A stretch of DNA of 64,000 nt. Source: Acidobacteriota bacterium (GTDB lineage: Bacteria > Acidobacteriota > Vicinamibacteria > Vicinamibacterales > UBA8438). This document shows positions 32,864 to 64,000 of this stretch, piece after piece. Position 1 is the first letter of the stretch; each line of letters opens with the position of its first letter. The stretch lies in the NCBI GenBank assembly GCA_009861545.1, contig VXME01000025.1, positions 2,346-66,345 of the forward strand, written 5' to 3'. The notes below the pieces were generated by a model. That model did not search any database. It worked only from the letters and a program-made list of their open reading frames with translations, and was not told where the DNA came from. A program made the translations under genes and the position numbers.

Positions 32864-32903
32864 GAGGTCAACGGCTAGGAGTTCTTCTGGGACCACGGCG
32901 AGC

Positions 32904-32936
32904 GAACGGCGGTAAGTGTCGCGCAGCCCTTGCGAC
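32904..32936. repeat. 33-nt direct repeat, copy 2
   Basis: gaacggcggtaagtgtcgcgcagCccttgcgac. It matches copy 1 at 32/33 positions, lies 40 nt downstream of it, and sits just upstream of the TA pair at 32965. Confidence 0.8.
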
Positions 32937-38588: not shown

Positions 38589-38617
38589 GACGGTTCTCCC
38601 GGCTTACACTGGGCACC

Positions 38618-40743: not shown

Positions 40744-40768
40744 CCGACGCGATCCAAGAGATGGCATC

Positions 40769-41503: not shown

Positions 41504-41563
41504 GGAACGATTCAACGTCCCGCGCGCCCCGCGGTGCCACCCAATGTGCCATGGGGCGTGCAG

Positions 41564-41604
41564 GGGAGCGACCCGCCGGAAACCTGCCGGGCCGGGTCGC
41601 TCCC
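41564..41604. terminator. GC-rich hairpin between convergent genes (possible bidirectional terminator)
   Basis: The 12-bp perfect stem GGGAGCGACCCG (41564-41575) pairs with CGGGTCGCTCCC (41593-41604) around a 17-nt loop, followed by 'ttcaaaag' (weak T tract). Confidence 0.35.
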
Positions 41605-41640
41605 TTCAAAAGTGTCCCTGGGGGAAGGCGGACCCGTCGC

Positions 41641-42342: not shown

Positions 42343-42373
42343 CGGACTGCAACCTGTGCCTTACGATGCCGAC

Positions 42374-43081
42374 TCAACGTTTGTAGCCCCGAATGGTCTT
42401 GGAGAGTTCATTTCGGTCGAATAGGTCCTTCTGGACGTCAACAGTCGGCGGTTCTACAGGCCAACTCGGGAGTGGTTTGTCAGTGGGCCAAATCGCGAGC
42501 AAGGGCGCGACGCTCGCCTTGACCGCATCCGATTCGACGACTATCTGGACAATGGCCCAAGTTGGAACGGCGTGTCTTACTAGGACTTCAGCTTGAATGT
42601 CGGTCGGGCAGTTCGGAAGACGATACTCTTGTCGACGGCGTCCCCGCGCGGACACGCGTGGCTGGAACATCGATTCGAACCCTTCGATACCGTCCTGGAC
42701 AAGGTCGCCGCGCGCAGTCGCGGCGTTGACCGGCGAGAATCTTGTACTCGGAAGCGCGAGTAGGACAGGCGTCAGACACAGATGAACCCACTCTTGCTCA
42801 GGTCGTTCCTTGCGGTAGTCGTCGAGCAAGTAGACGTTCGGATACTCAATCGAACAGCACACGTAATCCCGATGACGGTCCAATCGTCGGGGGTCGTTCA
42901 CCACTCCGTTGACGCCCCGATTGAGCAGGCTCCGCGTCGATGCGATTTCGCGGGCGGCGATGATCCCTGCCAGCGACGTGACGCGTGTGAAGTGGACGAG
43001 ACGGGTGATCGCAAGTTCCTTGATCCGTCGTAGTATTTGGCCGTTGAACGTAGCGGCTGACATGGCGTCCGTGACCGTCAT
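42374..43081 (-). CDS. DarT-like (DUF4433-like) ADP-ribosyltransferase
   Basis: Ordered blocks 'RLVHFTRVTSLAGII', 'DYVCCSIEYPNVYLL', 'FSPVNAAT' and 'IQAEVLVRHAVPTWAIVQIVV' match my recollection of the DarT H-Y-E motif order (h-H-h-T; D-Y-V-x-F-Y-F; x-A-E-h-L-V). Confidence 0.65.
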   Translation of the reverse strand: MTVTDAMSAATFNGQILRRIKELAITRLVHFTRVTSLAGIIAAREIASTRSLLNRGVNGVVNDPRRLDRHRDYVCCSIEYPNVYLLDDYRKERPEQEWVHLCLTPVLLALPSTRFSPVNAATARGDLVQDGIEGFESMFQPRVSARGRRRQEYRLPNCPTDIQAEVLVRHAVPTWAIVQIVVESDAVKASVAPLLAIWPTDKPLPSWPVEPPTVDVQKDLFDRNELSKTIRGYKR

Positions 43082-43215
43082 GGAGCGTCGACGCGCCCGC
43101 TACAGGCGCCGCTGCGTGCCGTCAGGCGAGCTTCACGGGTGGCGACAGACATGGCACCAGTAAGACTGCCGACCATGATCAGGAGCATGACGCCCTGGAT
43201 CCACGGTTTCGTCAT
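43078..43215 (-). CDS. 45-aa predicted membrane peptide (below ORF-track cutoff)
   Basis: Own translation: MTKPWIQGVMLLIMVGSLTGAMSVATREARLTARSGACSGRVDAP*. GAGG lies upstream and its TGA overlaps the DarT-like ATG (ATGA). Confidence 0.35.
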   Translation of the reverse strand: MTKPWIQGVMLLIMVGSLTGAMSVATREARLTARSGACSGRVDAP

Positions 43216-43250
43216 GACAACCTCGGCGGGAGCCCGTGGATCTGGTTCCA

Positions 43251-43460
43251 TCATGGGAAGAACACGAGCTTGATCAGCAAGCCGAGAATGGCTGGCCCGT
43301 AGCCGAACTTCAGCAACTTCATGTCGGCTTTCAGGTCGGCGATTGCCGCCTTCAGGTCATTGCCGATCCGTCCGATCTCGGTCTGCATGCGGTTGACGTC
43401 ACGTTCGAGGTCGAGCTTGGTCACCAAGTCTTCGCGGCCAGTGACCATCCTTCGGATCAT
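43251..43460 (-). CDS. small coiled-coil protein with C-terminal TM helix (DUF1640/XhlA-like)
   Basis: 'DLVTKLDLERDVNRMQTEIGRIGNDLKAAIADLKADMKLLKFGYGPAILGLLIKLVFFP' shows heptad-like repeats followed by a hydrophobic tail. Confidence 0.5.
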   Translation of the reverse strand: MIRRMVTGREDLVTKLDLERDVNRMQTEIGRIGNDLKAAIADLKADMKLLKFGYGPAILGLLIKLVFFP

Positions 43461-43573
43461 GCTACCACGGCCGGCGGCGGGCGCGCGGGCGGGGAACGCG
43501 GACCACGAGTAGCACAGGCCTTCCCTCTGCGGCCGTTCGGCGCATTCTTGGCCGACGGTGTTCCGGGCGAGCG

Positions 43574-46541
43574 TCAGTAGTACTGCCGGATGTAGCCATA
43601 GGCCCGGTCGAACAGCTCCTGGTCCTGGTGCAGGCGGTACTTGAACAACGTCTTTCGGAGCGCCCTCTTCACCTCCCGCTCGCCGGCCTTGGTCGTCTGC
43701 CAGCCCTCGAAGCGCACGTGCCGGACGATCTCGTCGATGTCGTTGACGACTCGCTCGACCATGACGGGCGTACGGTCGTTGCGGGCTTCCTCGAACAGCT
43801 CCGTCAGGGCGGCCTTGCCGCGCTCCTCGGGCGTTGCCGGCTCGACGGTCCGCTCTGCCTCTACCACGTCGCGGGCCAGATCGAGCAGTGACTTGAGGAA
43901 CTCGATACTGACGAGCAGCCCTTGCTCGTGCTTCTGCCGCAGCGCTTCGAGCCGCTCGCCGAGCGCGCGAAAGCGGGGGTCGCTCAGATGTCTGCGAAGC
44001 CGCTCGACGACCCTGATCTCGATCTCCTTCGACTTCTTCTCCGGGTCCGTCGTGCCGAGCACGGCGTCCAGCACGTCGGCGTCGAGCACCAGCGTCTCCA
44101 GGTCGTCGCGCACGGCCTCGACGTGAACGTGCCGGTGGATGAGGTCGATGGTCTTGGCGCCGAGCGTGTGCCAGAGGAGCTTGTCCGTTCCCGTCGAGGG
44201 CTTCAGCGACTCGTACACCTGGCCCAGCCAGCCGTGGTCGGCTTCGTACGGCTCCAGACTCGGGTCGGGGGAAATCGCGTCCCAGAGGCGCGCCAGGTAG
44301 CTGTAGTCGGCGGCGAATCCGTCGCGTGTCTCATTGTCCGGGAGACACTCCTGCGCGGCGATCAGTCCCTCGTAGCCGGTGACCGTGCGATCTACCCCGG
44401 AGAACCACGCCAGGCATTTCTGCACCGCCGCAGGAAGCGCGGCGACCAGCTCATTGAGGTTCGTGACGACGCGGGTGATGCCCTCCTCGTCGAACTGGAT
44501 CGCCTGGGCCACATCGTCGAATACCCCGAGGTAGTCGACGATCAGCCCGTGGGTCTTGGTCTCGCCGTACGGCCGGTTCGTGCGGCAGATGGCCTGCAGC
44601 AGCGTGTGGTCACGCAGCGGCTTGTCCAGGTACATCGCCTGCAGGATGGGCGCATCGAAGCCGGTCAGCAGCTTCGACGTGACAATCAGCAACTTGAGCG
44701 GGTCGTTCGGATCGCGGAAGCGGTCGAGCAGCCGCTCTTCGGCGTCCCGGTCCCGGCGGTAGGCGGCGTACTCGTCCTCTCCGCTGTTGACGGTCATGAC
44801 GACATCGGACATCTCGACGGGCAACACCCGGTCGAGCGCCTGCTTGTACAGCAGGCAGCCTTCACGGTCGTAGGTGACCACCTGCGCGCCAAAGCCGTTG
44901 GGAGCCACCTTCTCCTGGAAGTGCTTCGCGATGTCGACGCAGATCCGCTCGACCCGTTCCGGCGTCTTCAACAGCACCGCCGTGCGGGCCGCGGTCTTCG
45001 AGAGTTGCTCCCGATCCAGGTCGCTCAGCCCACCGGTCAGCTCCTGGTACTCGGCGTCAATGGAGGCCCGGTCGATGTGCAGCTCCGGCAACCGCGGCTC
45101 GAAGTGCAGCGGCTTCGTCGCGCCGTCTCGGATCGACTCCTCGAAACCGTAGCGGCTCAGGTAGCCGTATTCATCCTCCTCGGCGCCGAAAGCGAAGAAC
45201 GTGTTCCGGTCGGCGCGGTTGATCGGGGTCCCGGTCAGTCCGAACAGGAACGCGTTGGGGAGCGCCCTGCGCATCTTCCGCCCGAGGTCCCCTTCCTGAG
45301 AACGATGGGCCTCGTCGACCAGCACGATGATGTTTGTGACGGTCGTTCAGGACACCGTCCACCTCGCCGAACTTGAAGATCGTCGTGATGATGATCTTCC
45401 GAGCGTCCTGCGCGAGCAACCGTTCGAGATCCGCCCGGCTGTCGGCCTTCTCCAGATTCGGCGCGTCGGCCGCGTGGAAAGTGCTGGATATCTGCGTGTC
45501 GAGGTCGATCCGGTCGACCACGATGATCACCGTCGGGTTTCCCAACGCCGGATGCAGCCGCAGCTTGCGGGCCGCGAACAGCATCAGGAGCGACTTGCCG
45601 GAACCCTGGAAGTGCCAGACCAGGCCCTTCTTGGGGTGGCCGGCGACGACCCGTTCGACAATGCGGTTCGCCGCCTCGACTTGTTGGTAACGTGCGACGA
45701 TCTTGGCTCGCCGCTTCCCCTTGCCCGTGGCGTAGGCCGTGTAGCTGCCCAGCAGATCCAGAACCGTGTGGGGGCGCAGCATGGACGAAACGGTCTGCCT
45801 GATTCGTTCGAGGGCCGGCGTACCTGCGTCGTCGTCCGCCCGCCACGGTCCCCAGAGATCGACCGGCAGGCCGATCGATCCGTATCGCAGGTCTTTCCCT
45901 TCGGTGGCGACCGAGCAGAGGTTCGGCACGAACAGATCGGGCACGTTGCGCTCGTAGTCGTCGTGGATCTGCGTTGCCCCGTCGAACCAGCTCTGACTCG
46001 ACCGCACCGGCGTCTTCGCCTCGATGACGACCAGCGGCAGGCCGTTCACCAGCAGCACGAGATCCGCGCGGCGCTCGTTCGCACCCGATCGGACGGTGTA
46101 CTGCATGCTGACGACATACTGGTTTCGCTCGACGTCCTCATGGTCGACGAGCCGCACGGTGACGTGCTCGCCGTCCGCGCCGAACGGCATCGACCGCTCT
46201 CCGGCGAGCCACGCTGCGAACTCCTCGTTCGCCTTGACCAGCCCGTCCGTCCGCACGCCCATCAGAAAGGCGCGCAGCCGGTACAGCACGTCGTCGGCCC
46301 TATCCGGCTGCGCCGCGATCTCCGGGTTGAGGCGGAGCAGCGCTTCGCGCACGTGGTCCTCGACGAGGACCTCGTGTGCCTGTCGCGGAAGGTGCTGCGG
46401 CCCGAGGTAGTGCCATCCGAGGCCGGAGAGCGCGCCGTGCCGCCGAGCGAGACCGGGTCCGACCGCCGTGTGGTGGGTTACGCCGCCGCAGAGGATGTCA
46501 CGGACGAGGGCCTCGACCGTGTTCGACTCGGTGAAGGTCAT
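43574..46541 (-). pseudogene. hsdR: type I restriction enzyme R subunit, interrupted by a 1-nt frameshift
   Basis: The N-terminal ORF 45171..46541 ('ADLVLLVNGLPLVVIEAK' nuclease core; 'WHFQGSGKSLLM' Walker A) and the C-terminal ORF 43574..45325 ('LVDEAHRSQ' DEAH box; 'TGTPI'; 'QAICRTNR') are in different frames. Coding-strand sequence '...gac cgt cac aaA cat c...' has one extra A (plus-strand TTT at 45333-45335) relative to the '..DRHNIIVLVDEAH..' reading. Confidence 0.85.
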
Positions 46542-46567
46542 GCTGGCAAACCTTGATCGGGGTGCCG

Positions 46568-46924
46568 CTACGACACGCCGGCACCCTGGCCGGGTTCGAT
46601 CACAAGCAGCGTCGTGTCCGGTTCGGTGGTGAACGTTTCGATCTCATCGCGGTGGCTACGGAGACGCCGTTCAATCTCGCTGGTCGAGCAGTTGCCGAGC
46701 GCCAGCCAGACTACTTTCGGCGGCGCACCGTACAGGGAGGATCGACCGCTGAAGTCGCCGTCCTTCGACACGATGGTGAAGCCGTGCTGCCTCGCGTACG
46801 CCCAGACGGCCGAGTCGTCCGCGGCCGCCAGACCGACCGCTCGAACGTGAACGACCTCGGTCCAGACGTCGCGAAGGCGGTCGCACAGCCGCGGCGAGAG
46901 ATTCTGGTCGAGGAGCAGCTTCAC
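46568..46924 (-). CDS. DUF5615 (Mut7-C/PIN-like) family protein, putative toxin
   Basis: GTG start at 'VKLLLDQNLSPRLCDRLRDVWTEVVHVRAVGLAAADDSAVWAYARQHGFTIVSKDGDF'. It overlaps the upstream stop (GTGA). Confidence 0.75.
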   Translation of the reverse strand: MKLLLDQNLSPRLCDRLRDVWTEVVHVRAVGLAAADDSAVWAYARQHGFTIVSKDGDFSGRSSLYGAPPKVVWLALGNCSTSEIERRLRSHRDEIETFTTEPDTTLLVIEPGQGAGVS

Positions 46925-47148
46925 CTTCCGCCGACCGCAACCAGTCGCCGCTCGCGATCCGCGGCGAATGCGAGACAGGCCCGGATGTCTTCGCGCGTCA
47001 GATCCGGGAAGTCTCGGAGGAGGTCGTCCTCGGACATGCCGGACGCCAGGTAGTCGAGCACGTCGGAGACCGTCATGCGCAGGCCACGGATACACGGCTT
47101 GCCGCTGCGTTTTCCGGGCTCGATCGTGATCCGGTCCAAGTGCGCCAT
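46921..47148 (-). CDS. DUF433 family protein, putative antitoxin
   Basis: Start moved to 'MAHLDRITIEPGKRSGKPCIRGLRMTVSDVLDYLASGMSEDDLLRDFPDLTREDIRACLAFA', the typical DUF433 pattern. Confidence 0.75.
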   Translation of the reverse strand: MAHLDRITIEPGKRSGKPCIRGLRMTVSDVLDYLASGMSEDDLLRDFPDLTREDIRACLAFAADRERRLVAVGGR

Positions 47149-47410
47149 CGGCTCAGAGTACGAAACGTCCCGCCATCGGTCAAGCGGCTGGGCGGAGGGA
47201 CGCATGCCACGAAACGCCCTTGTTCCATACCTCGCGCAGCCAGGCGACGCCAACCGCGTGACCGGGTCATCCGCGGCTACGCTCACGGAATGAGCCGTTC
47301 GCCCTCTTGGACCCAGCGAAGGGTATCGGCCGGCTACACGCGCATCGTGGTGGCGATTCGTCTCCACGACTGAACGCTCTCATGCTTGTGAATACTGTCA
47401 CTGGCGGCGC

Positions 47411-48574
47411 CTACAAGGCGGACGAGAGCATGGTGGACCGCATCCGCTTCAACGCGCGTAGTCGACGTTCTACCGAGGAGCACGCCGCCCTCACGCCGCC
47501 TGCCCTTCGGAGGATGGCATCCTGGATGTCAGACGACGGTAACGCAATGGATAGCCGGCGGACGGCGTGCCCATTGATCTTCTTCATGCTTGCGCTCGTC
47601 CCGGCCGCGAAGCACTCAATCTGTCGTCGCCCCGCCGCCGAACGGAGATACAGTTCCAGGAAGTGAGGACGAGCAACGGATCGGTCCGGTCGCAATCTCA
47701 TCATCGTATCCGGCCATGACACGTCGCATCGATCCTCGTTGAAGATGCCCGACAACCCGACGCGCTCACGCGTATTGGAGCGAGAAATCAATAGGTCACC
47801 TGCCTCAACGACGGAGTTGAGCATGGCGGGGGTTCGCTGGACTTGCTTGAGCCGTCCGGGACGATACCCGGACTTCGTTAGCGCATCGAGCCCCAGTACC
47901 CAGTGTCCGGTCGGAGTAGACGATTCGATGGCCGAACAGCCGTTTCGAGGCGCTTCGGTCAACAAGGAACCAAGTGCGACGCCTCTCGTGTCGGAGTTGG
48001 CGACCAAGGTGTCGAACACGCTGGCCTGCGCTAACTGCGCAGCTTCGACAAGTGCAAAGAGAGCCTCCGTAGCGCGGTCAATCTCCCGAAGAGTGACAGC
48101 GATCCGACGCTGTTCGTCCAGCGGCGGCAGGGCGAACTCGTACGTCGCGAGACTCTGCCAGTTGGTCCGAGGCGACAGAGACCCTGCCGATGTGCCGATG
48201 GCGTGCTTGAAAAACGCATCGGTCTGGCAGATAAACGGTAGCAGTTTCGGCAGCAGGTAGCCCTTGTTCCTCGACTCCAGCACGTAGATATCCCCGCTAC
48301 AGACGCCGCTGAAATCCGGGACGGCGACCTTGCGGAGGTAAGCGCGGCGCTTTCCGAACAACACTTGACCGGGCCGGAAGAGGCTCGTGAACGTGGTGCC
48401 GCCGCCCACGTCGCCCCAGCGTCGAATCGCAAGTTCGCCGGGGTCCAGATGCTCCAGGCCGACGTAGCGACCGACGCCAGCGGCCTCGGGACTTGACGAC
48501 CGTTCGGGGCTGCGCTTGACGACATCCCCGAAGGCGACCAGCGTCCAGCCGGGCTTGAGCTTGGCGCTACCCAT
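47411..48574 (-). CDS. hsdS: type I restriction-modification specificity subunit
   Basis: Two TRD-like halves with conserved spacers ('LPPLDEQRRIA', 'ALPSSDIQDAI'). The start overlaps the hsdM stop by 8 nt. Confidence 0.85.
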   Translation of the reverse strand: MGSAKLKPGWTLVAFGDVVKRSPERSSSPEAAGVGRYVGLEHLDPGELAIRRWGDVGGGTTFTSLFRPGQVLFGKRRAYLRKVAVPDFSGVCSGDIYVLESRNKGYLLPKLLPFICQTDAFFKHAIGTSAGSLSPRTNWQSLATYEFALPPLDEQRRIAVTLREIDRATEALFALVEAAQLAQASVFDTLVANSDTRGVALGSLLTEAPRNGCSAIESSTPTGHWVLGLDALTKSGYRPGRLKQVQRTPAMLNSVVEAGDLLISRSNTRERVGLSGIFNEDRCDVSWPDTMMRLRPDRSVARPHFLELYLRSAAGRRQIECFAAGTSASMKKINGHAVRRLSIALPSSDIQDAILRRAGGVRAACSSVERRLRALKRMRSTMLSSAL

Positions 48575-50096
48575 CGGATCGGCTCTCCGCAGCGATCCGC
48601 TCGATCATCGCGACCACGTCTTCCATCTCCGACCAGAACGCTTTGTTGCCGGCGTCGAAATCGCTCCACGCGTCCCGCAGATCACCTCCAATCTGGGTGT
48701 CGGTGTCCGAGTGAGCGATCCGCGGGACGTAGCGGGGAATGGACAAGTTGCCGTCGTTGGCAAGCACGTCGTCGTTGGGCACGACGGCGGCGATTCCAGG
48801 CTCGGCGCCGAACGCGTCGTACGCCGTCAGGATCCGCTTCTGATGCTCCGGCGTCAGGAAGCTCTGCGCCCGCTCCCGCGCTACTTGTCGAACCGCGTCG
48901 ATGAACAGCACCTTGCCGCGGCGCTCGGGCGGCTTCCGCGTCCGGCAGACCACGACGCACGCCTCCATCGGCGAGTTGTAGAACAGGTTCGGCCCCAAGC
49001 CGAGCACGCACTCGATGAGGTCGCGCTCGATCAGGGCGCGCCGCATCGCTGCCTCCTCCTGCCGGAACAGGACGCCGTGCGGGAAGAGGATGGCGCAACG
49101 GCCGGTACTCCGGTCGAGGCTCTCGAGAATGTGCTGAAAGAAGGCGTAGTCGGCCCGTCCCTGCGGCGGCGTGCCGAGGATGTTGCGGCCCCACGGGTCG
49201 TCGAGCCACGCGTCCCGGTTCCAGGTCTTGATCGAATACGGCGGATTGGCGAGCACCACGTCGAACCTCATCAGGCGGTCCCGCTCGATGAAGGCGGGAT
49301 CGCTCAGCGCGTTGCCAACGGCGATCCGGAAGTCCTCGACGCCGTGCAGCACGAGGTTCATCCGCGCAATGGACGCCGTCGTGCCGATGATCTCCTGGCC
49401 GTAGAGGCCGAGCGTCCGGGCATCGCCGCCGTTGCGCCGCACCTCCGCCAGCGCGGAGATGAGCATGCCGCCGGTGCCGGCCGTCGGGTCGTAGATGCGC
49501 TCGCCCGACCGCGGCCGGAGCATCCGGGTCATCAGGTGCACCAGCGTCCGGTTGGTGTAGAACTCCTGCGCCGTGTGGCCGCTGTCGTCGGCGAACTGCT
49601 TGACGAGGTACTCGTAGGCGTTGCCCAGCTCGTCTTCCGGCACCGCGGCGAGGCTCAGCGTGTGCTTCGAGAAGTGCTCGACCAGGTTCTTGAGCGTCTC
49701 GTCCGGCATCTGCGCCTTGTCGGTCCAGGGCGCGTTCCCGAAGACGCCGGCGAGACGCTCCGGGTTGCCTGTCTCGATGGCGCGGAACGCGTTGCGCAGC
49801 GTCCGGCCCACATCGCGCGCCGCACGGCGGACATCGGACCAGTGCGCCCCGGTCGGGATGACGAACCGGTCGTTGGCGGTCGCCTCTGCGTACCCGCGGT
49901 CGCCGGTCTCATCGAAGGCGTGCCCGTAGTCCTCGTCCCACACGTCCGAGAGGCGCTTGAAGAAGAGCAGCGGGAAGACGTACTGCTTGTAGTCGCCGGC
50001 GTCGATCAGTCCCCGCAGGAGGTTGGCCGCCCTCCAGAGGTACGACTCCAGTGCCTGCTGGCCCAGGTGCCGCGGGGAGGGATGCGCGTCAGCCAC
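48567..50096 (-). CDS. hsdM: type I restriction-modification N6-adenine DNA methyltransferase subunit
   Basis: GTG start at 'VADAHPSPRHLGQQALESYLWRAANLLRG..YKQYVFPLLFFKRLSDVWDE' (HsdM N-terminal domain). 'YDPTAGTGGML' is the AdoMet motif I and 'ANPPYS' is motif IV. Confidence 0.9.
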   Translation of the reverse strand: MADAHPSPRHLGQQALESYLWRAANLLRGLIDAGDYKQYVFPLLFFKRLSDVWDEDYGHAFDETGDRGYAEATANDRFVIPTGAHWSDVRRAARDVGRTLRNAFRAIETGNPERLAGVFGNAPWTDKAQMPDETLKNLVEHFSKHTLSLAAVPEDELGNAYEYLVKQFADDSGHTAQEFYTNRTLVHLMTRMLRPRSGERIYDPTAGTGGMLISALAEVRRNGGDARTLGLYGQEIIGTTASIARMNLVLHGVEDFRIAVGNALSDPAFIERDRLMRFDVVLANPPYSIKTWNRDAWLDDPWGRNILGTPPQGRADYAFFQHILESLDRSTGRCAILFPHGVLFRQEEAAMRRALIERDLIECVLGLGPNLFYNSPMEACVVVCRTRKPPERRGKVLFIDAVRQVARERAQSFLTPEHQKRILTAYDAFGAEPGIAAVVPNDDVLANDGNLSIPRYVPRIAHSDTDTQIGGDLRDAWSDFDAGNKAFWSEMEDVVAMIERIAAESRSDG

Positions 50097-50137
50097 GTTC
50101 CTGTGCTCTCGGTCAGCCGTTGCCCGGCGCGATTGCG

Positions 50138-51643
50138 TCACTCCAGCCAGCCATCCTCGACCAGCACGCGTCGCAGGCGATCCTCGGCGGCGCGGGCTTC
50201 CGTCAACGCCGTCTTGAAGGCAGCCAGCGCCTCGGGCAGCGGCGGGATGTCCTGGCCGATGGGCGGCAGGACGTAGCGAGAGATGTTGAGCGTCCAGTCT
50301 TCGCCCTCGATGTCCTCCGTCGAGACGACCTTGGCCCGGTTCTCCACGTCCCGGAAACGCCGCACCCAACCGACGATCTGTTCGGCATGCCCCGGGTCGA
50401 GGAAGTTCTGCGCCCGGCCCTTGCGGAACAGGCTCGACGCGTCGATCACGATCACCCTGCCGCGCCGGCCGTGTCGCTTCGCGCGGCGCAGCGTCACCAC
50501 CGCCGGGGCGAGACCCGTGCCGTGGAAGATGTTGGGCGCGAGCCCGATCACCGCCTCGATCAGATCCTGCTCCAGCAGCGCCCGGCGGATGCGTCCCTCC
50601 GCGCCCTTGCGGAACAGCGCCCCCTGCGGCAGCACGACAGCCATCCGGCCCGAATCTTCCGCCATCGACGCCACCATCTGCTGGACCCAGGCGTAGTCGC
50701 CGTAGCTCGCCGGCGGCAGGCCGAAGGCGGCGCGGCCCCACGGATCCGCCTCCCACACCTCGCGGCCCCACTCCTTGAGCGAGAACGGCGGGTTGGCGAT
50801 GACGCAGTCGAACGTCGCCAGAGCGCCGGACGCGTCGGTGAAGGCCGGGCCGCGGAGCGTGTCGTTCTGCTCGATCCGGAAGTCCTCGACGCCGTGCAGC
50901 ACGAGGTTCATGCGCGCAATCGACGACGTGGTCAGGTTCTTCTCCTCGCCGAAGATGCGACCGAAGAAGGTCCGCGGGTCGCCGCCGGCCCGCTCGACGT
51001 GCTCGATCGCACCGAGCAACATGCCGCCGGTGCCGCAGGCCGGATCGTAGATGCTCTCGCCCTCCTGCGGATCGAGCAGATCGACCATCATCCGCACCAC
51101 GCTCCGTGGGGTGTAGAACTCACCCGCCTTCTTGCGCCGCGTGATGTCGGCGAACTTGCCGATCAGGTACTCGTAGGCGTCGCCGAGGATGTCGGACCCG
51201 ACCTTCGTGTTGCCCAGCGGCACCACGGACAGTCCCTCGATGAGGTCCTTGAGCAACTCGTCGCCGAGCATCTCGCGGTTGCCCCAGTCGGCCGCGCCGA
51301 AGACGCGCGTCAAGGTGTGGGGGTTGGCCCGTTCGATCGCCCGCATCGCCCGCGCCAGCGCCGTGCCGACACGGGCCGGCGTCTCGCGGACGTCCCGCCA
51401 GTGGCACGCGTCCGGCAGCTTGAAGCGGTGCAGCTCGGGAAAGACGCCCAGGTCGATGTCGCCGTATTCCTCCCGCGCCTCGGCCGTCTCCTCGTCCCAG
51501 ACGTCGCTGATCCGCTTGAAGAACAGCAGCGGAAGGATGTAGCCCTTCCAGTCCGTCCGGTCGACGGCGCTGCCGCGGAGAATCTCCGCGCACCTCCACA
51601 GCTCGGACTTCAAATCCTTCAGGGTCAGTTGATTCGCCGGCAT
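50138..51643 (-). CDS. hsdM: second type I N6-adenine DNA methyltransferase subunit (tandem paralog, no own hsdS)
   Basis: 'LKSELWRCAEILRGSAVDRTDWKGYILPLLFFKRISDVWDEE', 'YDPACGTGGML' and 'ANPPFS'. Collinear with 48567..50096. Confidence 0.9.
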   Translation of the reverse strand: MPANQLTLKDLKSELWRCAEILRGSAVDRTDWKGYILPLLFFKRISDVWDEETAEAREEYGDIDLGVFPELHRFKLPDACHWRDVRETPARVGTALARAMRAIERANPHTLTRVFGAADWGNREMLGDELLKDLIEGLSVVPLGNTKVGSDILGDAYEYLIGKFADITRRKKAGEFYTPRSVVRMMVDLLDPQEGESIYDPACGTGGMLLGAIEHVERAGGDPRTFFGRIFGEEKNLTTSSIARMNLVLHGVEDFRIEQNDTLRGPAFTDASGALATFDCVIANPPFSLKEWGREVWEADPWGRAAFGLPPASYGDYAWVQQMVASMAEDSGRMAVVLPQGALFRKGAEGRIRRALLEQDLIEAVIGLAPNIFHGTGLAPAVVTLRRAKRHGRRGRVIVIDASSLFRKGRAQNFLDPGHAEQIVGWVRRFRDVENRAKVVSTEDIEGEDWTLNISRYVLPPIGQDIPPLPEALAAFKTALTEARAAEDRLRRVLVEDGWLE

Positions 51644-51768
51644 GGGCCGGCGATATGCTATTCGTTCTCTCGGTCAGCTTGCACGAATCGGCTCGGCACG
51701 GGCCGACACAGCGAGCCCTGACAAACCGTAGCTGCCTCGCTTCCGAACGGCTCGCAGGAGCCATCCGG

Positions 51769-58163: not shown

Positions 58164-59138
58164 TCACCGCTGCAGTTCCAGGCGCGCCACGACCGGGTAG
58201 TGATCGGACGGGTACCGCCCGTCGTCGTGGTCGACGATCGTCTCGACCGAGCGAACGCCGACCGGGCCGCGTACCAGGATCCAGTCGATACGCCCCGGAT
58301 TGGCCAGCTCCGGCGCGCGGAAGTCGTTGGACGTGCGGGGCGGGCCGATCCGCTCGCCGGCGAGCAGCCAGGCGTCCTGCAACCCCTGACCGGTGGCCGC
58401 CGACCAGGTTTCGCTGATCTCGGCCAACGCGTTGAAGTCCCCCGTGACGACGACGGCGCCGGCCGCCGGAAGCGCCGCGACGCGCGCCGCGATCCGCTTG
58501 GCGGAATCGACCTGCCGCTGCCCCCGGCGGAGCGTCAGGTGGGTATTGAAGACGTGGAACCTTCTGCCGCTCTCGCGGTGGTGAAAGCGCGCCCAGGTGA
58601 CGATGCGGGAGACGTTGCGCCGCCAGCCGACCCCGGTCGGTCCGTCGGCATTCGGCGAGAGCCAGAAGGTGCCGGACTCGATCGGGATCAGCGCATCGCG
58701 CCGGTAGAAGATCGGCGTGTACTCGCTCAGGCCGGTGCCGCCGTTGAGGCCGCGGTCGGCGCCCAGCCAGCGGTAGCCGGGAAGCGCGTCCGCCAGGTAC
58801 TCCACCTGCTCGTCGAGGGCCTCCTGCAGGCCCGCCACGTCCGGCGCGAACCGCTCGATCGTTCTCGCCACGAGTGCGCGGCGGTGCACCCAGCCGTTGT
58901 CGCCGTCGTTGCCGAGGGACGTGCGGATGTTGAAGGTCATGACGCGGAGCGGCGTCGGAGTCTCGTCCTGCCCGCCCGCGGGCCGGGCGGCGCCGGTCGG
59001 TGCGCCGGCGGCCGCCACACCGGGAACCGGCGCGGCCCCTGCCGTCCACACAAGGGTCGCCGCCGCGCCCGCCCGGACGAGAAGAGCAAACGCGGCCACC
59101 ACGGCTCTCACGCCCGATCCGGCGGTTCTACCGTCCAT
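58164..59138 (-). CDS. endonuclease/exonuclease/phosphatase (EEP) family protein, exported
   Basis: 'LRVMTFNIRTS', 'VAGLQE', 'VVTGDFN' and 'SDHYPVVARL' are EEP motifs. Confidence 0.85.
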   Translation of the reverse strand: MDGRTAGSGVRAVVAAFALLVRAGAAATLVWTAGAAPVPGVAAAGAPTGAARPAGGQDETPTPLRVMTFNIRTSLGNDGDNGWVHRRALVARTIERFAPDVAGLQEALDEQVEYLADALPGYRWLGADRGLNGGTGLSEYTPIFYRRDALIPIESGTFWLSPNADGPTGVGWRRNVSRIVTWARFHHRESGRRFHVFNTHLTLRRGQRQVDSAKRIAARVAALPAAGAVVVTGDFNALAEISETWSAATGQGLQDAWLLAGERIGPPRTSNDFRAPELANPGRIDWILVRGPVGVRSVETIVDHDDGRYPSDHYPVVARLELQR

Positions 59139-59979
59139 CGTCCCAGTCTGCCGGCCGCCCCGACCGCCGCCGCAGCCACTCGACGGTGCACAGCAGCAGG
59201 ACCGCGAACAGGATCAGAAAGGTCGCCACGGCCAGCATCGCGGGGCTGATCTGCTCGCGGATACCGGCCCACATCTGCCGCGGTATGGTGCGCTGGTTCT
59301 CGCCGGCCATGAACAGCACCACGACCACCTCATCGAACGACGTCGCGAAGGCGAACAGGGCGCCGGAGACGACGCCCGGCGCGATCAGCGGAAGTTGCAC
59401 GCGGCGGAAGGTGGTCACCGGCCCGGCCCCCAGACTGGCCGCGGCCCGCGTCAAGTTCGTGTCGAAGGCGGACAGCGTGGCGGTGACCGTGATCACCACG
59501 AACGGGGTGCCGAGCGCGGCGTGGGCGAGGATGAGCCCCAGATGCGTCTGGGACAGTCCCAGCGTCGAGTAGAAGAAGAACATTCCCGCCGCCGAGATGA
59601 TCAGCGGCGTAACCATCGGCGAGATCAGCAGCCCCATCGCCAGGTGCCGGGCCGGCATCGCGCGGCTCGACAGCCCCAGCGCGGCGAGCGTGCCGAGGGC
59701 CGTCGCCAGCACGGTGGCCGCGACGCCGATGAGCAGGCTGTTGGCGAGCCCGCGCGCCCACGCCCCGTCGCCGAGGACCTGCCGGTACCAGCGCAGCGAA
59801 TACGCCTCCGGATCGAGGCGCAGCATCCCGTCGGTGAAGGTGAAGTACGGCTCGGCGTTGAAGCTGAGCGGCACGATCACCAGGATCGGCGCCACCAGGA
59901 ACGCGAAGATCAGCCCGCAGGCGACGCGATGCGCGAGCCTTCCGGCGCCGAATCGGGACGCGGCGTCCGTCAGGCTCAT
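59128..59979 (-). CDS. ABC transporter permease (PotC-like, polyamine/opine-type)
   Basis: Start moved to 'MSLTDAASRF' (ATGA overlap with the upstream permease stop). 'AFDTNLTRAAASLGAGPVTTFRRVQLPLIAPG' is the EAA loop. Confidence 0.85.
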   Translation of the reverse strand: MSLTDAASRFGAGRLAHRVACGLIFAFLVAPILVIVPLSFNAEPYFTFTDGMLRLDPEAYSLRWYRQVLGDGAWARGLANSLLIGVAATVLATALGTLAALGLSSRAMPARHLAMGLLISPMVTPLIISAAGMFFFYSTLGLSQTHLGLILAHAALGTPFVVITVTATLSAFDTNLTRAAASLGAGPVTTFRRVQLPLIAPGVVSGALFAFATSFDEVVVVLFMAGENQRTIPRQMWAGIREQISPAMLAVATFLILFAVLLLCTVEWLRRRSGRPADWDDGR

Positions 59980-61208
59980 CCCAGCCTCATGCGCTCGACG
60001 CCGACCACGCGGTCGTAGAGCAGATAGAGCCCGACCACGCACGCCAGCAGGATCCCGCCCAGCGCGCCGGCCAGACCCCAGTTCAGCGACGTCTGCATGT
60101 GGTAGGCGATGAAGTTCGAGATGAGCTGCCCGCTCTGGCCGCCCACCAGCGCCGGGGTGATGTAGTAGCCGATGGCCAGGATGAACACCAGCAGCGACCC
60201 GGCCCCCACCCCAGCCAGCGACTGCGGCCAGTAGACGCGCCGGAAGGCCACGGGGAAGCCCGCTCCCAGCGACTCGGCGGCCCGCATCTGCTGCGGCGGA
60301 ATGGTGCGCATCACCGAGTAGAGCGGCAGGACCATGAAGGGCAGCAGCACGTGGGTCATCGCCACCACGGTGCCGGTCATGTTGTAGATCATCGCCAGCC
60401 GCCCGTCGTCGCCGATCAGCCCCAGCGCCACCAGCAGGTCGTTGACCACCCCCTGGCTCTGCAGCAGGACGATCCACGAGGTGGTGCGCACCAGCAGCGA
60501 CGTCCAGAACGGCACCAGCACCAGGGCCAGCAGCAGGCCCGCCCGGCCCGGCGGCGCATGCGCGATGAGATACGCCACCGGGTACCCCAGCAGCAGGCAC
60601 AGCGCGGTGATGCCGAGGCTGACCACGAACGTCCGCCAGAACAGCGCCAGGTAGATGCGCCGCTCGGGCGGCTGGCGGGCGATGGAGCCGTCCGGCAGGC
60701 GCTGCAGGTCGACCGCGTTCAGGTAATGGCGCGTCGTGAAACGGTCCCCCGCGGTACGTATGGCGTGCCACGTCAGCGGGTCGCCCCAGTCGGCGTCGAT
60801 GTCGAGCAGCGCCTGCCGCCACGGGCCTGCCTCGACCTCCAGCAACAGGCGCCCGCTGCGGACGAGGACGCTGCGCAGGCCGCCGCGAATCCGGTTGACG
60901 CGGCTGGCGACGCGCCCGATCGTCCGCGCCTCCCGCGCCCGCACCAGCTCGCGCGCCGTGGCGGCGTACACCGCCTCGCCGGGGTCGGACTCGCCGTCCC
61001 ACTCGCGCAGCAGCGCGATGGTCTCCGGCAGCGCGTCGGCCACCACCGGGTCGTAGACGCTGCGCAGCAGCATCGTCGCCAGCGGCACGACGAACGTCAC
61101 GCCGATAAAGGCCACGAGCGGCAGGGCGAGCCCGGCGGCACGCAACCGCGGCCGGGTCAACGCGCCAGCCATGCGCTGCAGCGCTCGTTCACTTCTTTCG
61201 TGGGCCAT
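59976..61208 (-). CDS. ABC transporter permease (PotB-like)
   Basis: EAA loop 'MRAAESLGAGFPVAFRRVYWPQSLAG'. The listed ATG 61208 lies outside the duplicated junction. The ATG at 61172 ('MAGALTRPRLRAAGLALPL') lies inside the repeat and may be the ancestral start. Confidence 0.85.
   Translation of the reverse strand: MAHERSERALQRMAGALTRPRLRAAGLALPLVAFIGVTFVVPLATMLLRSVYDPVVADALPETIALLREWDGESDPGEAVYAATARELVRAREARTIGRVASRVNRIRGGLRSVLVRSGRLLLEVEAGPWRQALLDIDADWGDPLTWHAIRTAGDRFTTRHYLNAVDLQRLPDGSIARQPPERRIYLALFWRTFVVSLGITALCLLLGYPVAYLIAHAPPGRAGLLLALVLVPFWTSLLVRTTSWIVLLQSQGVVNDLLVALGLIGDDGRLAMIYNMTGTVVAMTHVLLPFMVLPLYSVMRTIPPQQMRAAESLGAGFPVAFRRVYWPQSLAGVGAGSLLVFILAIGYYITPALVGGQSGQLISNFIAYHMQTSLNWGLAGALGGILLACVVGLYLLYDRVVGVERMRLG
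61146..61191. repeat. 46-bp imperfect direct repeat, left copy (covers permease 5' end and relic of SBP 3' end)
   Basis: ccgcggccgggtcaAcgCGccagccatgcgctgCagcgctcgttca matches 63161-63206 at 42/46 positions (hand alignment). In the SBP frame it still reads '..NERCSAWLAR*'. Confidence 0.85.
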
Positions 61209-62157
61209 CGCCGATTACCGCGCTGATGCGCGTTCTCAGACGGTCACGGAACTCGTCCAGATTCTTCGCTTCCCACACGATATGGTTGTATTGACGCGTG
61301 TCGAAATGCACCTTTTCGATTGCATCTTCCCGGCACGAGAAGACGACCGGGATGTCGCGACCGTGGGCGAATCCTGCTTCGTAGTAGACACCGCCCCGAG
61401 GCCCGTCTTTGCCTTGCGTAAAGTCCGCGACGACGAAGCGAGCACGCCGCAGCTCAGCGATGATCGCGTCGTCGACCTTACCGGCATGCTCCTCCTTGTC
61501 GATTCGCACTGCTTCGTAACCGGCGTCCTCGATTCCGGGCTTGATTGCATTCTCCCAGACTTCGTCCATGGACTCGTCGAACCACATGGCGACGAACGCC
61601 TTGGATGCCTCGGTGGCAGTTCGTTCAAGCTCTGCAAGCCGTGCGTACCCGTGAACCGAAACTTGGTACTCTGCTGCTCGTCCAACCGTACCCGGGCGCG
61701 ACCCCTGTATCCACCCTCGACTCGCGAGGAAGGACTCCAGGTACTGCAACTCCTCGAGTCGAGTACACTCTGACCATGCTAGCCTGCGAGCCACGTCAGG
61801 ACTCTGCGCATGCGCATGTAGGCGGAATGTCGCTGCCACGTGCGGCAGTTCCGACGCAACGAATCGAAGAAGTTGATCCGCTCGCTCGTGAACACTCAAC
61901 GGTGGCCGTCGCTTGGCGTCCTCAACGGCTTGGGTTGTCACTTCGGGACACCCCTCGCCTAGTTGCCTCTGCTCAACCAGCCAGGACGTAAGGCGCGACT
62001 TTTGGACTTCATCAAGTGCAAGCAAACCATCCCGCGTCCTGTTCGTAATCCAGTACTCTCCGCCGGCGCGCGGCGAAGCCAGGAGTGAAACCGAAGACGC
62101 ACGCTTCATTTCAGAAGCCGGTGTTCTCCAGATCGGGCAGGTGCCATTCTCATTCAT
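61189..62157 (-). CDS. nucleoside 2-deoxyribosyltransferase-like (NDT/TIR-like Rossmannoid) C-terminal domain protein with unknown N-terminal domain
   Basis: The C-terminal 'AFVAMWFDESMDEVWENAIKPGIEDAGYEAVRID...DDAIIAELRRARFVVADFTQGKDGPRGGVYYEAGFAHGRDIPVV' follows the NDT-like pattern (h-h-h-F...D-h-T...G-x-x-x-E-x-G-h-A). The N-terminal ~190 aa are unassigned. Confidence 0.6.
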   Translation of the reverse strand: MNENGTCPIWRTPASEMKRASSVSLLASPRAGGEYWITNRTRDGLLALDEVQKSRLTSWLVEQRQLGEGCPEVTTQAVEDAKRRPPLSVHERADQLLRFVASELPHVAATFRLHAHAQSPDVARRLAWSECTRLEELQYLESFLASRGWIQGSRPGTVGRAAEYQVSVHGYARLAELERTATEASKAFVAMWFDESMDEVWENAIKPGIEDAGYEAVRIDKEEHAGKVDDAIIAELRRARFVVADFTQGKDGPRGGVYYEAGFAHGRDIPVVFSCREDAIEKVHFDTRQYNHIVWEAKNLDEFRDRLRTRISAVIGDGPRKK

Positions 62158-62258
62158 TCTTCGTGAATCCTTGCCCCGGCACGGTCATGATGCGGCGCGG
62201 CCCAAGTCCTGTTGTAGTCGGTGCACTGGTGCCGGGCGTGGACCCTCATCGTCCTTCG

Positions 62259-62465
62259 TCAACCGATGACGCGCAGAATCGCACCGACGGCGGCCATCGC
62301 GCTGACCGGGCGCCAGGTGAGCCGGGTCTCCATCACGCCCATGTCGGCGCACAGCTCCGCGGCCACGGCGGTCAGGTCTGCCTTGGTCGGCAGCTTCTCG
62401 ATGTCGACCCGGCGGGCGTCATGCCGGGTACCCGTACCCGCGACTGCGTGCCGCCTGCGTGTCAT
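62259..62465 (-). CDS. small coiled-coil/TM protein (DUF1640-like)
   Basis: 'LPTKADLTAVAAELCADMGVMETRLTWRPVSAMAAVGAILRVIG'. The ATG overlaps the upstream stop (ATGA). Confidence 0.45.
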   Translation of the reverse strand: MTRRRHAVAGTGTRHDARRVDIEKLPTKADLTAVAAELCADMGVMETRLTWRPVSAMAAVGAILRVIG

Positions 62466-62680
62466 CGCTCGAGCGGAGACGCTTCCGCAGATCCAGCTCG
62501 ATCTTCGGCGCCAACGGCTACACGTCGAGCGGGATAACGGACGTACGTGCGGCCCGAGGCCTTCTGACTGGCCCGGATGTCGTTGAAGATGGCCTCGACG
62601 TCGTAGTCGAAGCGGGCTGCGTGTTCGTCGCGAACCGCCCGGATTTCGGCGATGATCGGGTCAATCGGTGGCTTCTGCAT
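62462..62680 (-). CDS. small hypothetical protein, putative antitoxin of adjacent PIN protein
   Basis: 72 aa, 'DPIIAEIRAVRDEHAARFDYDVEAIFNDIRASQKASGR'. It overlaps the PIN gene's 3' end by 20 nt. Confidence 0.5.
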   Translation of the reverse strand: MQKPPIDPIIAEIRAVRDEHAARFDYDVEAIFNDIRASQKASGRTYVRYPARRVAVGAEDRAGSAEASPLER

Positions 62681-63155
62681 GGTCTGGCTCGATGAGTTCG
62701 CTGGGTGTGCAAATGACCGCCGGCTGGTATCCGACGCTTAGACAGACATGCTCGATCCGGTACCGCATGGCGGCGTTGGCGATGTGCCGAAAATTCCACG
62801 TTACCAGATAATCGACTCCGTTCGTCACCGCGATGGCAATATGCGCGGCATCGTCCGCAGCCCTCCGCGGGACGGCCCCGAGATCAAGCAGCTTCCGTGT
62901 CAGTTCCACCGCGTCCTCGGTCACGTCAAGCAGCGTAACGGATTCGAGCAACTCCACACGAGCCCGAGCGGCATCGGCATCACCGGCACGAGCTTCCTTG
63001 GCCACAAGCTCCGACGAAACCAATTCGAATCGGTCCGGCGCACTCGCCCACCACTCGCGGGTCACCTGTTGATAGCCGGCAATCACGACGTCACGAGAGG
63101 GTCGCGCGGCCAGGTAGCTGAGCACCGAGGTCTCGACGTAGACGGTGGGATTCAT
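62661..63155 (-). CDS. PIN domain protein (VapC-like toxin)
   Basis: 'VYVETSVLSYL', 'DAAHIAIAVTNGVDYLVTWNFRHIAN'. Confidence 0.8.
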   Translation of the reverse strand: MNPTVYVETSVLSYLAARPSRDVVIAGYQQVTREWWASAPDRFELVSSELVAKEARAGDADAARARVELLESVTLLDVTEDAVELTRKLLDLGAVPRRAADDAAHIAIAVTNGVDYLVTWNFRHIANAAMRYRIEHVCLSVGYQPAVICTPSELIEPDHAEATD

Positions 63156-63160
63156 GCCTG

Positions 63161-63206
63161 CCGCGGCCGGGTCAGCGGACCAGCCATGCGCTGAAGCGCT
63201 CGTTCA
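63161..63206. repeat. 46-bp imperfect direct repeat, right copy (covers SBP stop codon)
   Basis: ccgcggccgggtcaGcgGAccagccatgcgctgAagcgctcgttca encodes '..NERFSAWLVR*' on the minus strand. Confidence 0.85.
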
Positions 63207-64000
63207 TGTCGTCCAGGTTGTCGCTCCACCACAGCCAGTCGTTCTGCAGGGTGCGGCGCATGTGCGCGGGGTAGGTCGGCATGTGGGGGTTCATGTCGAT
63301 GCCCGCGTCGGCGTGCCGGCCGATGAGCGGCAGGCCGGAGCGGCGCACCGGGCTGTAGGCGATGTAGCGGCCGATGGCGGCCATCGAACTCGCGCGGGTG
63401 GCGAACTTCACCAGCTCGAGAGCCGGTTCGAGGTCCGGCGTCCCGGCGACGATGCCGATGGGACCGACGTCGAGCACCTGCCCGTCCCAGACGATCTCGA
63501 ACGGCTGGCCTTCGAGCACCTGCGCGTTGAAGATGCGGCCGTTGTAGGCGGTGCTCATCGCCACCTCGCCGTCGGCCAGCATCTGCGGGGGCTGCGCCCC
63601 CGCTTCCCACCAGACCACCTGGTCCTTGATGGTGTCGAGCTTGCGGAAGGCGCGGTCCAGCCCCTCGGGCGTGTCGAGCACGGCGTAGACCTCGTCGACC
63701 GAGACGCCGTCGGCGATCAGCGCGAACTCGAGGTTCACGAACGGCACCCGGCGCATGCCGCGCCGGCCCGGGAAGCGCTCGAGGTCGAAGAAGTCCTCCA
63801 TCGTCGACGGCGCCTCGCCCGCCAACCGCTCGGTGTTGTAGGCGTAGACGGTGGAATAGAACGTCGTGCCGACGCCGCATTCCGCCAGGGTGTCGGGCAG
63901 GAAGTCCGCCGCCGCCGGCGTGCCGTCCGCCGCCGGCGCGAGGATGGATACGTCGATCGGCTCCAGCACGCCCTCGTCGCAGCCGGCCACCGCGTCGGCC
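63172..64000 (-). CDS. ABC transporter periplasmic substrate-binding protein (PotD/PotF-like); N-terminus beyond window end
   Basis: 'YNGRIFNAQVLEGQPFEIVWDGQVLDVGPIGIVAGTPD' is SBP-like. The frame stays open through position 64000. Confidence 0.85.
   Translation of the reverse strand, partial: ADAVAGCDEGVLEPIDVSILAPAADGTPAAADFLPDTLAECGVGTTFYSTVYAYNTERLAGEAPSTMEDFFDLERFPGRRGMRRVPFVNLEFALIADGVSVDEVYAVLDTPEGLDRAFRKLDTIKDQVVWWEAGAQPPQMLADGEVAMSTAYNGRIFNAQVLEGQPFEIVWDGQVLDVGPIGIVAGTPDLEPALELVKFATRASSMAAIGRYIAYSPVRRSGLPLIGRHADAGIDMNPHMPTYPAHMRRTLQNDWLWWSDNLDDMNERFSAWLVR

Follow-up and report, generated by a model that had tools for sequence, protein, structure and literature searches.

In a 64,000-nt stretch of DNA from an Acidobacteriota bacterium of the order Vicinamibacterales (GenBank assembly GCA_009861545.1, contig VXME01000025.1, positions 2,346 to 66,345; the whole stretch is referred to here as the window), a PotABCD-like ABC transporter operon carries an islet of four genes exactly where the gene for the substrate-binding protein (SBP) meets that for a PotB-like permease. 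The sequence of this gene junction (J) is present twice, one copy at each end of the islet, and both transporter genes are unbroken. Comparison with related loci shows that the window cassette is not a single recent 2-kb insertion: several modules make up an old islet, and occupancy of the junction varies across the order. In the reading that we favour, with a probability of about 0.6, duplication of the overlap between the two genes made a permissive landing pad, the content of which is turned over by host homologous recombination and deletion. The components of the arrangement are already known, namely core-gene hotspots, repeats that restore the end of a target gene, and toxin-antitoxin (TA) cassettes in arrays. 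A literature search returned no described case that combines an operonic overlap site, obligatory duplication, three-copy stacking, cargo-free intermediates and the absence of a recombinase.

An Operon Junction Present in Two Copies

The islet was first described in an earlier note made from the letters of the window alone, which reported 46-nt direct repeats at its two ends. Alignment reproduced them, with 42 of 46 positions identical (91%) and a start-to-start distance of 2015 nt (Table 1). The operon lies on the minus strand throughout and is ordered, in the direction of transcription, SBP, PIN, 72-aa open reading frame (ORF), 68-aa ORF, NDT-like, PotB-like, PotC-like; its upstream end falls beyond the window. 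The right, SBP-proximal repeat (copy A) contains the final 11 SBP codons with their stop (..NERFSAWLVR*; stop at 63172-63174) and, after it, an 11-nt match to the 5′ end of the permease gene. In the left, permease-proximal repeat (copy B) a relic SBP terminus comes before the permease 5′ end (..ERALQRMAGALTRPR..), and the NDT-like stop codon (61189-61191) makes up the first 3 nt of the repeat. The SBP terminus of copy A and the permease 5′ end and relic terminus of copy B had been assigned in this way in the earlier note, which had also described the four ORFs as filling the space edge to edge; they do occupy the whole interval between the repeats, with the PIN ATG (63153-63155) 5 nt from the right repeat and the NDT-like stop codon inside the left one. 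When the window was searched with the 27-nt core of J, allowing up to 3 mismatches, only the two repeat positions were returned (0 expected in 100 shuffles). Further copies of the 46-nt motif, a check that the earlier note had suggested for the whole genome, were not found in the window, nor were junction-type repeats elsewhere in it, the remaining repeats being paralogous genes.

Among orthologous loci the consensus of J is GAACGAGCGCTTCAGCGC(A/C/G)TGGCTGGCGCGCTGA. The overlap of the SBP and permease genes, counted from ATG to TGA, is 16 nt. The permease frame is open upstream through J (..ERALQR(M/L)AGAL..), and in many lineages CTG or GTG stands in place of the window’s ATG, so that the functional overlap probably exceeds 16 nt; this would account for a duplication of tens of nucleotides. 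The permease gene of the window has two candidate starts, the ATG at 61172-61170, inside J, and that at 61208-61206, inside the GDG codons of the NDT-like gene. In copy B a new ATG of this kind, in frame, regularly stands 18 nt upstream of J; in NDT-type cassettes it arises from the GAT-GGN codons of a conserved GDG motif at the NDT-like C-terminus (window 61200-61208; L089 4939-4960; L047 about 4420-4442; related loci are given L numbers here). The motif is coded GAT-GGN wherever a permease follows; the middle J copies of L045, L047 and L049 are not followed by one, and there the coding is GAC-GGN. This split, seen in about three independent lineages only, suggests that the GDG-derived ATG acts as a permease start.

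In many lineages J contains a 7-bp inverted repeat, TCAGCGC..GCGCTGA. It lies in doubly coding sequence and its pairing is not maintained by compensating changes. RNA folding of J regions from five loci, done as a test for an attC-like or regulatory hairpin, was no better than that of shuffled sequences (z -0.19 to +1.79), and J had 0 matches in IMG/VR viral contigs, where an attP-like copy was sought.

Composition and Assembly Support

The segment between the repeats had been judged A/T-richer in the earlier note, and computation bears this out: GC content is 0.618 in the 1969-bp insert vs 0.70-0.72 (about 0.71) in the flanks. At third codon positions (GC3) the PIN, 72-aa and NDT-like genes have 0.64-0.69 and the 68-aa ORF 0.86, compared with 0.93-0.96 in the SBP and permease genes; the low GC3 of the cargo is unameliorated. 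Assembly chimerism, another concern raised at the outset, was addressed with an independent Logan contig (L088, run SRR9841447, 2637 nt), which is 100% identical to window 60855-63491, spans both repeats and reaches about 300 nt into each flanking gene. The same architecture recurs in many chromosome-level metagenome-assembled genomes (MAGs), and 16 related loci have J in two or three copies. None of the outcomes that the earlier note had named as fatal to its proposal was found: relatives do not all carry the same four genes at this position, the repeats are not produced by assembly, and the segment does differ in composition.

Domains of integrases, transposases or recombinases were absent from the cassette ORFs and from 20 ORFs scanned across window 38-59 kb, which agrees with the earlier note’s failure to see an integrase, a transposase or inverted repeats; the agreement holds for the cassette and the scanned ORFs of window 38-64 kb. 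Recombinase and transposase domains were likewise absent from the cassette of every occupied allele, and inverted repeats were not found at the cassette ends. A transposon or insertion sequence (IS) with target-site duplication was considered and rejected, as transposase and inverted repeats are absent and the repeats, at 35-60 nt among the occupied loci, are too long and too variable.

Empty, Occupied and Cargo-Free Sites in Related Genomes

A permease scan with one genome per species yielded 80 loci, nearly all labelled Vicinamibacterales or Acidobacteria, with more distant loci labelled Longimicrobiales or Pseudomonadales; SBP orthologues were found in 60+ loci. At most orthologous loci the SBP and permease genes overlap and J is present once, which is the common state and the empty site that the earlier note had proposed to look for. 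Among close relatives the site is empty in L001, L003, L023 and the metagenome locus L092, the one additional close relative that a metagenome scan yielded; their permease and SBP are 91-96% identical to those of the window. These single-J sites uphold the claim that an ancestral overlapping junction was duplicated with both flanking genes left intact.

At 15 genome loci, 0.85-3.4 kb are inserted precisely at J, and a further occupied locus, L089, came from context look-ups. Together with the window this makes 17 occupied loci, and J stands at both insert ends in all 17. In L045, L047 and L049 three J copies bound two tandem cassettes. The length of the repeat varies between 35 and 60 nt: copy A extends 0, 11, about 16 or about 25 nt beyond the SBP stop, and the start of copy B varies with cassette type. 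The two J copies are near-identical in L002, L005, L006, L029 and L045. On the permease tree, 8 of 11 genomes in the window clade are occupied, and each of the three empty ones is sister to an occupied genome; L029, with HicAB alone, is grouped with L089 (HicAB-NDT), and its sister L038 is empty. A lineage-specific tail, gagatcccc, is present in both J copies of L029.

Some junctions are duplicated and hold no cargo. In L009 (5850-6043) the SBP/permease junction is a tandem duplication of 103 nt in 1.9 copies, and in L040 (about 5885-6010) one of about 66 nt, with the same sequence in L093; the duplication in L040 was not called by TRF and was seen by eye and by local alignment. At the junction of the first and second permease genes, L028 (7098-7490) has 98 nt in 4.0 copies (82% matches), again cargo-free, the repeat unit being the last 98 nt of the PotB-like gene, including its stop codon and the overlapping PotC-like start. 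The cargo-free duplications of L009 and L040 are either precursors of occupied alleles or scars left by them.

More distant lineages vary at the same position in other ways. Where SBP and permease are separated by a spacer of 150-200 nt, extra genes are inserted without direct repeats (L145, L128). Elsewhere one or two extra tandem SBP paralogues are present (L096 7815-8918; L098 7816-8994; L099 3412-5772; L151 1621-2697), each ending ..NERF.AWLAR*, so that the junction sequence is repeated through whole-gene duplication. That copy B of the window might be the remnant of a second SBP paralogue was rejected, since copy A has permease 5′ sequence, which such a model does not predict. One MAG, SRP338948_co1_127, has the operon in two forms, one empty and 95% identical to that of the window (L001, CAZMWA010000177.1), the other occupied, 81% identical and with a dehydrogenase cassette (L052, CAZMWA010000123.1); these are either two paralogous operons in one genome or the product of a strain-mixed bin.

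Genes of the Islet and Their Relatives

Table 1. Features of the transporter operon and its islet, in the direction of transcription (window coordinates).
Feature	Position	Strand	Evidence or remark
SBP_bac_8 substrate-binding-protein gene, 3′ part	63172..64000	-	Pfam PF13416, E 1.3e-39; continues beyond window end
Junction copy A, SBP-proximal direct repeat	63161..63206	-	Real SBP 3′ end and stop, plus 11-nt permease 5′ relic
PIN-domain protein, 164 aa	62661..63155	-	Pfam PIN, E 2.4e-4; VapC-family toxin candidate
72-aa ORF, conserved PIN partner	62462..62680	-	Candidate antitoxin; 20-nt overlap with PIN 3′ end
68-aa ORF, 5′-truncated coiled-coil/transmembrane remnant	62259..62465	-	Alignment with full-length genes of L007 and L059
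NDT-like protein, 322 aa	61189..62157	-	C-terminal domain of predicted NDT/DNPH1/TIR fold; candidate defence or toxin effector
Junction copy B, permease-proximal direct repeat	61146..61191	-	Permease 5′ end and relic SBP 3′ end
PotB-like ABC permease	59976..61208 or 59976..61172	-	Pfam BPD_transp_1; NCBIfam PotB, E 2e-40, below cut-off
PotC-like second permease	59128..59970	-	Pfam BPD_transp_1, E 6e-17

The NDT-like protein belongs to an unnamed family of at least 3951 members. Its C-terminal domain matches the PADLOC TIR effector PDLC00733 (E 1.2e-11), and the protein matches phrog_16139 (E 1e-38); against Pfam NDT (PF05014) it scores 21.2 bits (E 3.4e-4), below the cut-off of 28.8. In an AlphaFold2 model with mean pLDDT 82, Foldseek matches of the C-terminal domain are DNPH1, NDT, SPARTA TIR, SARM1 and TIR-STING (probability 1.00, template modelling score (target) 0.5-0.67), and this domain is predicted to have the flavodoxin-like NDT/TIR fold. 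The top matches of the whole model, GlmS/SIS, were disregarded at a root-mean-square deviation of around 20 Å, only matches of the C-terminal domain being meaningful. The N-terminal domain (180 aa) is uncharacterised. Members of the family lie next to BREX genes (L081), in a restriction/SNF2/HEPN island (L084), in an IS/TA island (L091) and on 15 viral contigs. Predicted fold and neighbourhood make the protein a candidate defence or toxin effector.

In intact NDT-like genes the stop codon always falls in or just before the first 3 bases of the downstream J copy, and three clades that are distant from one another (the top clade, L089 and L047/L049) share the exact nucleotide at which the gene meets J. 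The NDT-like proteins are 49-76% identical among window-clade genomes whose permeases share 91-96%, and their grouping, for example of L002 with L008, conflicts with the permease tree, the divergence ratios being uneven. Close to its 3′ end the NDT-like ORF of L002 (5015-6016) changes to the frame of the SBP and continues in it across J (...MNERFSAWLAR*), with tblastn homology ending at 5851; the frame change is either a gene-disrupting frameshift or a long-read assembly error.

The PIN protein scores 22.1 bits against Pfam PIN, just under the 23.6-bit cut-off. Homologues number 1391, from different phyla and at about 70% identity; NCBI names several of them VapC-family toxin, and on this similarity the protein is itself a candidate VapC-family toxin. 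The PIN gene and its 72-aa partner are present as a module in the window, L002 and L004. The 72-aa ORF is conserved in L002, L004, L005 and L008, and is kept in L005 and L008, where PIN is deleted; it has no match in Pfam, NCBIfam, PADLOC or PHROGs. The PIN and 68-aa proteins also had no match in PADLOC, NCBIfam or PHROGs. L048 (674-1232) has a PIN and 72-aa-partner module, 62% and 51% identical to that of the window, on the other strand and about 5 kb upstream of an SBP/permease junction that is itself empty. Flanking direct repeats were not detected there, and the pair therefore also occurs outside the J site. Being conserved, adjacent to PIN at another locus and retained after PIN loss, the 72-aa ORF behaves as expected of an antitoxin and is a candidate for one, though it lies downstream of PIN and has no recognised domain. 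VapBC modules are recognised by a small upstream antitoxin with a DNA-binding domain; here the conserved partner is downstream and matches no family.

The remaining window ORF, of 68 aa, corresponds to a coiled-coil/transmembrane protein that is full-length (87-94 aa) in L007 and L059, the protein of L007 having a weak match to PF07798 (CCDC90/DUF1640-like). By alignment with these genes it is a 5′-truncated remnant. Both the PIN and 72-aa pair and the DUF1640-like module were added inside the islet of the window clade with no new J copies.

Cargo differs among the other occupied loci. Inserts with TA or defence-like genes have a GC content of 0.60-0.66 and are AT-richer than their flanks, and the GC of one cassette is host-like. 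HicA/HicB with a conserved promoter-like leader is found in L008, L029, L045, L047 and L089; HicA is deleted in L044 and L049, and a truncated HicB stands immediately upstream of the NDT-like gene in L002, L004, L005 and L006. In L005 and L006 the same copy-A tail, ccgcggcaggc, remains together with the final bases of PIN, the rest of PIN being deleted. In L045 only the last ~45 nt of the NDT-like gene are left before the middle J, and L044 is without that J too. A 1.5-kb cassette with a reverse-oriented glucose/sorbosone dehydrogenase gene (PF07995, E 5e-105) is present in seven genomes that are monophyletic; as it is confined to one clade of the permease tree, it stems from one event. Remnants of HicAB/NDT occur in both branches of the dehydrogenase clade, and L037 and L046 have lost that cassette precisely. 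Along the flanking genes, identity to the window varies in a mosaic pattern. As far as genome comparison goes, this points to a small number of ancient duplications and insertions, followed by recombinational replacement of alleles, internal deletion and precise loss between repeats.

Duplication of the Overlap as a Proposed Landing Pad

The favoured reading may be set out in four steps, and the whole scheme would require no dedicated recombinase. In the first, tandem duplication of the overlap region, alone or during a replicative template switch that brought the first insert, would uncouple SBP and permease, so that the stretch from the SBP stop of the first copy to the permease start of the second tolerates inserts with both genes unbroken. 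Illegitimate events would then bring in selfish or defensive modules, HicAB and the NDT/TIR-like gene, and later PIN with its 72-aa partner and the DUF1640-like gene. Co-oriented, tightly packed and terminator-free, these modules would ride the operon transcript, and the 3′ end of the NDT-like gene would supply the permease with an in-frame ATG. Finally, the content would be turned over through host homologous recombination with DNA of related genomes, flanks and J serving as homology, through internal deletions, and through precise deletion between two J copies, which restores the empty site. Co-orientation, and the absence of any terminator-like site inside the cassette, suggest that the cargo genes are probably co-transcribed with the transporter.

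The earlier note had left the choice between duplication-mediated capture and an att-like, site-specific event driven by a trans-acting recombinase. The first of these is favoured here and the second disfavoured: the repeat boundaries are variable, J folds no better than chance, no recombinase was found in the cassettes or in the scanned ORFs of window 38-64 kb, junctions are duplicated without cargo, and modules were added internally, all of which argues against an enzyme that cuts and joins. Together with the inserts that lack direct repeats where the two genes are spaced apart, these observations fit the idea that the duplication reflects the need to keep both overlapping genes.

Several points weigh against this account. 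Duplication, insertion and excision are known through genome comparison alone. The cargo-free duplications could be scars that follow cargo loss and not precursors. The fusion of the NDT-like gene to J at the same nucleotide in three clades could come from one ancient event, but also from a travelling cassette with a J copy of its own, and the near-identical J pairs could mark recent J-mediated integration and not gene conversion. The 64-kb window leaves room for a trans-acting recombinase elsewhere in the genome, and the entry of foreign DNA into the pad is not explained by the model.

The J-bounded units may instead form an integron-like cassette system within the operon, the overlap being the recombination site for RecA alone or for an unlinked recombinase; we consider this unlikely. 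In a version without any special enzyme, which we rate as less likely, RecA would recombine J with J and excise a circle of one J plus cargo, which would reintegrate by a single crossover at the J of another genome. Direct repeats of 35-60 nt exceed the minimal length for RecA recombination. The near-identity of J pairs in several genomes, the scatter of empty sites among occupied close relatives and the existence of three-copy arrays would all be expected, and the copy-A tail of L047 resembles the permease 5′ end of the top clade, not its own. However, the lineage-specific sequence in both J copies of L029 points to local duplication or descent, like L089, and descent and decay account for the pattern in the dehydrogenase clade. 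A 2-kb circle moreover has no evident route between cells, and a double crossover in the long conserved flanks would be far more efficient than recombination over about 46 bp.

Less likely again is a version in which J is an att-like site for a tyrosine, serine or Xer-type recombinase encoded elsewhere, modelled on integron cassettes or on elements that hijack host Xer recombinases, with cassettes excised and integrated as one-J circles. It would explain why J stands at both ends of all occupied sites and can be stacked in three-J tandem arrays, why cassettes lack a recombinase of their own, and why the point of fusion between the NDT-like gene and J is fixed even among distant clades; the 7-bp inverted repeat in the J of many lineages could be seen as part of such a site. 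Yet that inverted repeat is uncompensated and falls in doubly coding sequence, and J folds no better than shuffles. Repeat boundaries differ among cassette types, modules joined the islet without new J copies, and the cargo-free tandem duplications are not products of a cut-and-join recombinase. The search of viral contigs returned no J-like site, and the scanned ORFs of window 38-64 kb include no recombinase.

A single ancient insertion of HicAB and the NDT-like gene, inherited strictly vertically, with every empty site a loss and the cargo fast-evolving, is improbable and ranks below both versions of J-mediated movement. The identical NDT-J fusion point in the top clade, L089 and L047/L049, the HicB remnants upstream of the NDT-like gene in four loci and the decay series of the dehydrogenase clade are as descent would have them. 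More than a dozen independent precise losses would be required, however, and the trees of NDT-like proteins and permeases are incongruent, with uneven divergence ratios. The cargo, with GC3 of 0.64-0.69 against around 0.95 in the genome, is unameliorated, and the independent dehydrogenase cassette and the cargo-free duplications would be left unexplained. An assembly artefact, that is, a collapsed or chimeric join at the repeat, to which a metagenome-type assembly and short repeats might lend themselves, has a negligible probability given the spanning Logan contig at 100% identity, the many similar chromosome-level MAGs and the 4 positions at which the repeats differ.

Comparison With Known Systems

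Mobile-element-free hotspots shaped by recombination in the core genes beside them have been documented (Oliveira et al., 2017, PMC5635113), and core defence hotspots of P. aeruginosa have been described (Johnson et al., PMC10250203). The islet resembles mobile-element-free hotspots in its constant core flanks and its variable, AT-richer TA and defence content, by which close relatives differ, in the absence of integrase and transposase, and in possible signs of flank recombination (mosaic identity and the conflict between NDT-like and permease groupings). Unlike in those hotspots, the site is an overlapping stop/start inside an operon and not a gap between operons, and the islet is tiny (0.85-3.4 kb), mostly co-oriented, terminator-free and always bracketed by copies of the overlap.

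Integron arrays offer a second, partial parallel, having short, mostly promoterless and co-oriented tandem cassettes with a repeated site between them and an upstream promoter, TA cassettes being common. However, IntI, attI and attC were not found, and J is host coding sequence with no hairpin signal; its boundaries vary, several modules can share one repeat pair, and the dehydrogenase cassette is inverted. As in integrase-borne islands at gene 3′ ends, the repeats hold the target 3′ end and the gene stays intact, copy A restoring the SBP terminus as it is in empty sites, and tandem accretion adds copies. The differences are that no integrase is encoded by the element, that the repeat boundaries are not fixed, and that J has a second end to restore, the 5′ end of the overlapping gene downstream.

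In the minimal mobile elements of Neisseria, cassettes are exchanged between conserved flanking genes after transformation. The islet shares with these elements the alternative small cassettes or empty state, the reliance on homologous recombination and the lack of mobility genes; unlike the islet, they are not known to have a junction duplication, an operonic site at overlapping genes or repeat-bounded tandem arrays. Some of the cargo itself resembles type II TA systems (VapBC, HicAB), with a PIN/VapC-like protein next to a small neighbour and HicA/HicB pairs in sister loci, but the PIN partner lies downstream and not upstream as in VapBC, with no recognised DNA-binding domain. The NDT-like protein is similar to TIR/NDT-fold defence effectors in the predicted NDT/DNPH1/TIR fold of its C-terminal domain and in the presence of its gene in defence islands and prophages. 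In contrast to named NDT/TIR families, its family is unnamed, scores under Pfam cut-offs, has the uncharacterised N-terminal 180 aa and is known from sequence and predicted structure.

Other Features of the Window

Window 38000-51700 is a low-GC (0.59-0.66) defence island, with no integrase among the ORFs scanned. It carries DarT (42374-43081, minus strand) with a DarT1-associated NADAR antitoxin (41641-42342, minus strand), and a type I restriction-modification system with HsdS (47411-48574) and tandem HsdM paralogues (48567-50771 and 50138-51643). HsdR is in two ORFs (45171-46541 and 43574-45325), which reflects a frameshift or pseudogene or a sequencing error. Two 37-nt direct repeats, GAG(T/C)GAACGGCGGTAAGTGTCGCGCAG(T/C)CCTTGCGAC, lie at 32827-32863 and 32900-32936, 95% identical and 73 nt apart.

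Implications

If the integron-like reading were true, promoterless TA and defence cassettes would be excised, exchanged, stacked in tandem and expressed from the transporter promoter, with both host genes left intact. The NDT/TIR-fold family, with its at least 3951 proteins in defence islands and prophages, is a candidate single-gene defence or toxin system. Empty sites, cargo-free duplications, single cassettes, double cassettes and decayed ones provide a natural series for the birth of a hotspot without mobile-element enzymes. More generally, a conserved operon can house variable genes where two of its genes overlap, if the overlap is duplicated. Two or three copies of a stop/start junction around AT-richer genes are a signature that can be searched for, and it could reveal small defence and TA islets missed by tools that seek integrases, tRNAs or large size.

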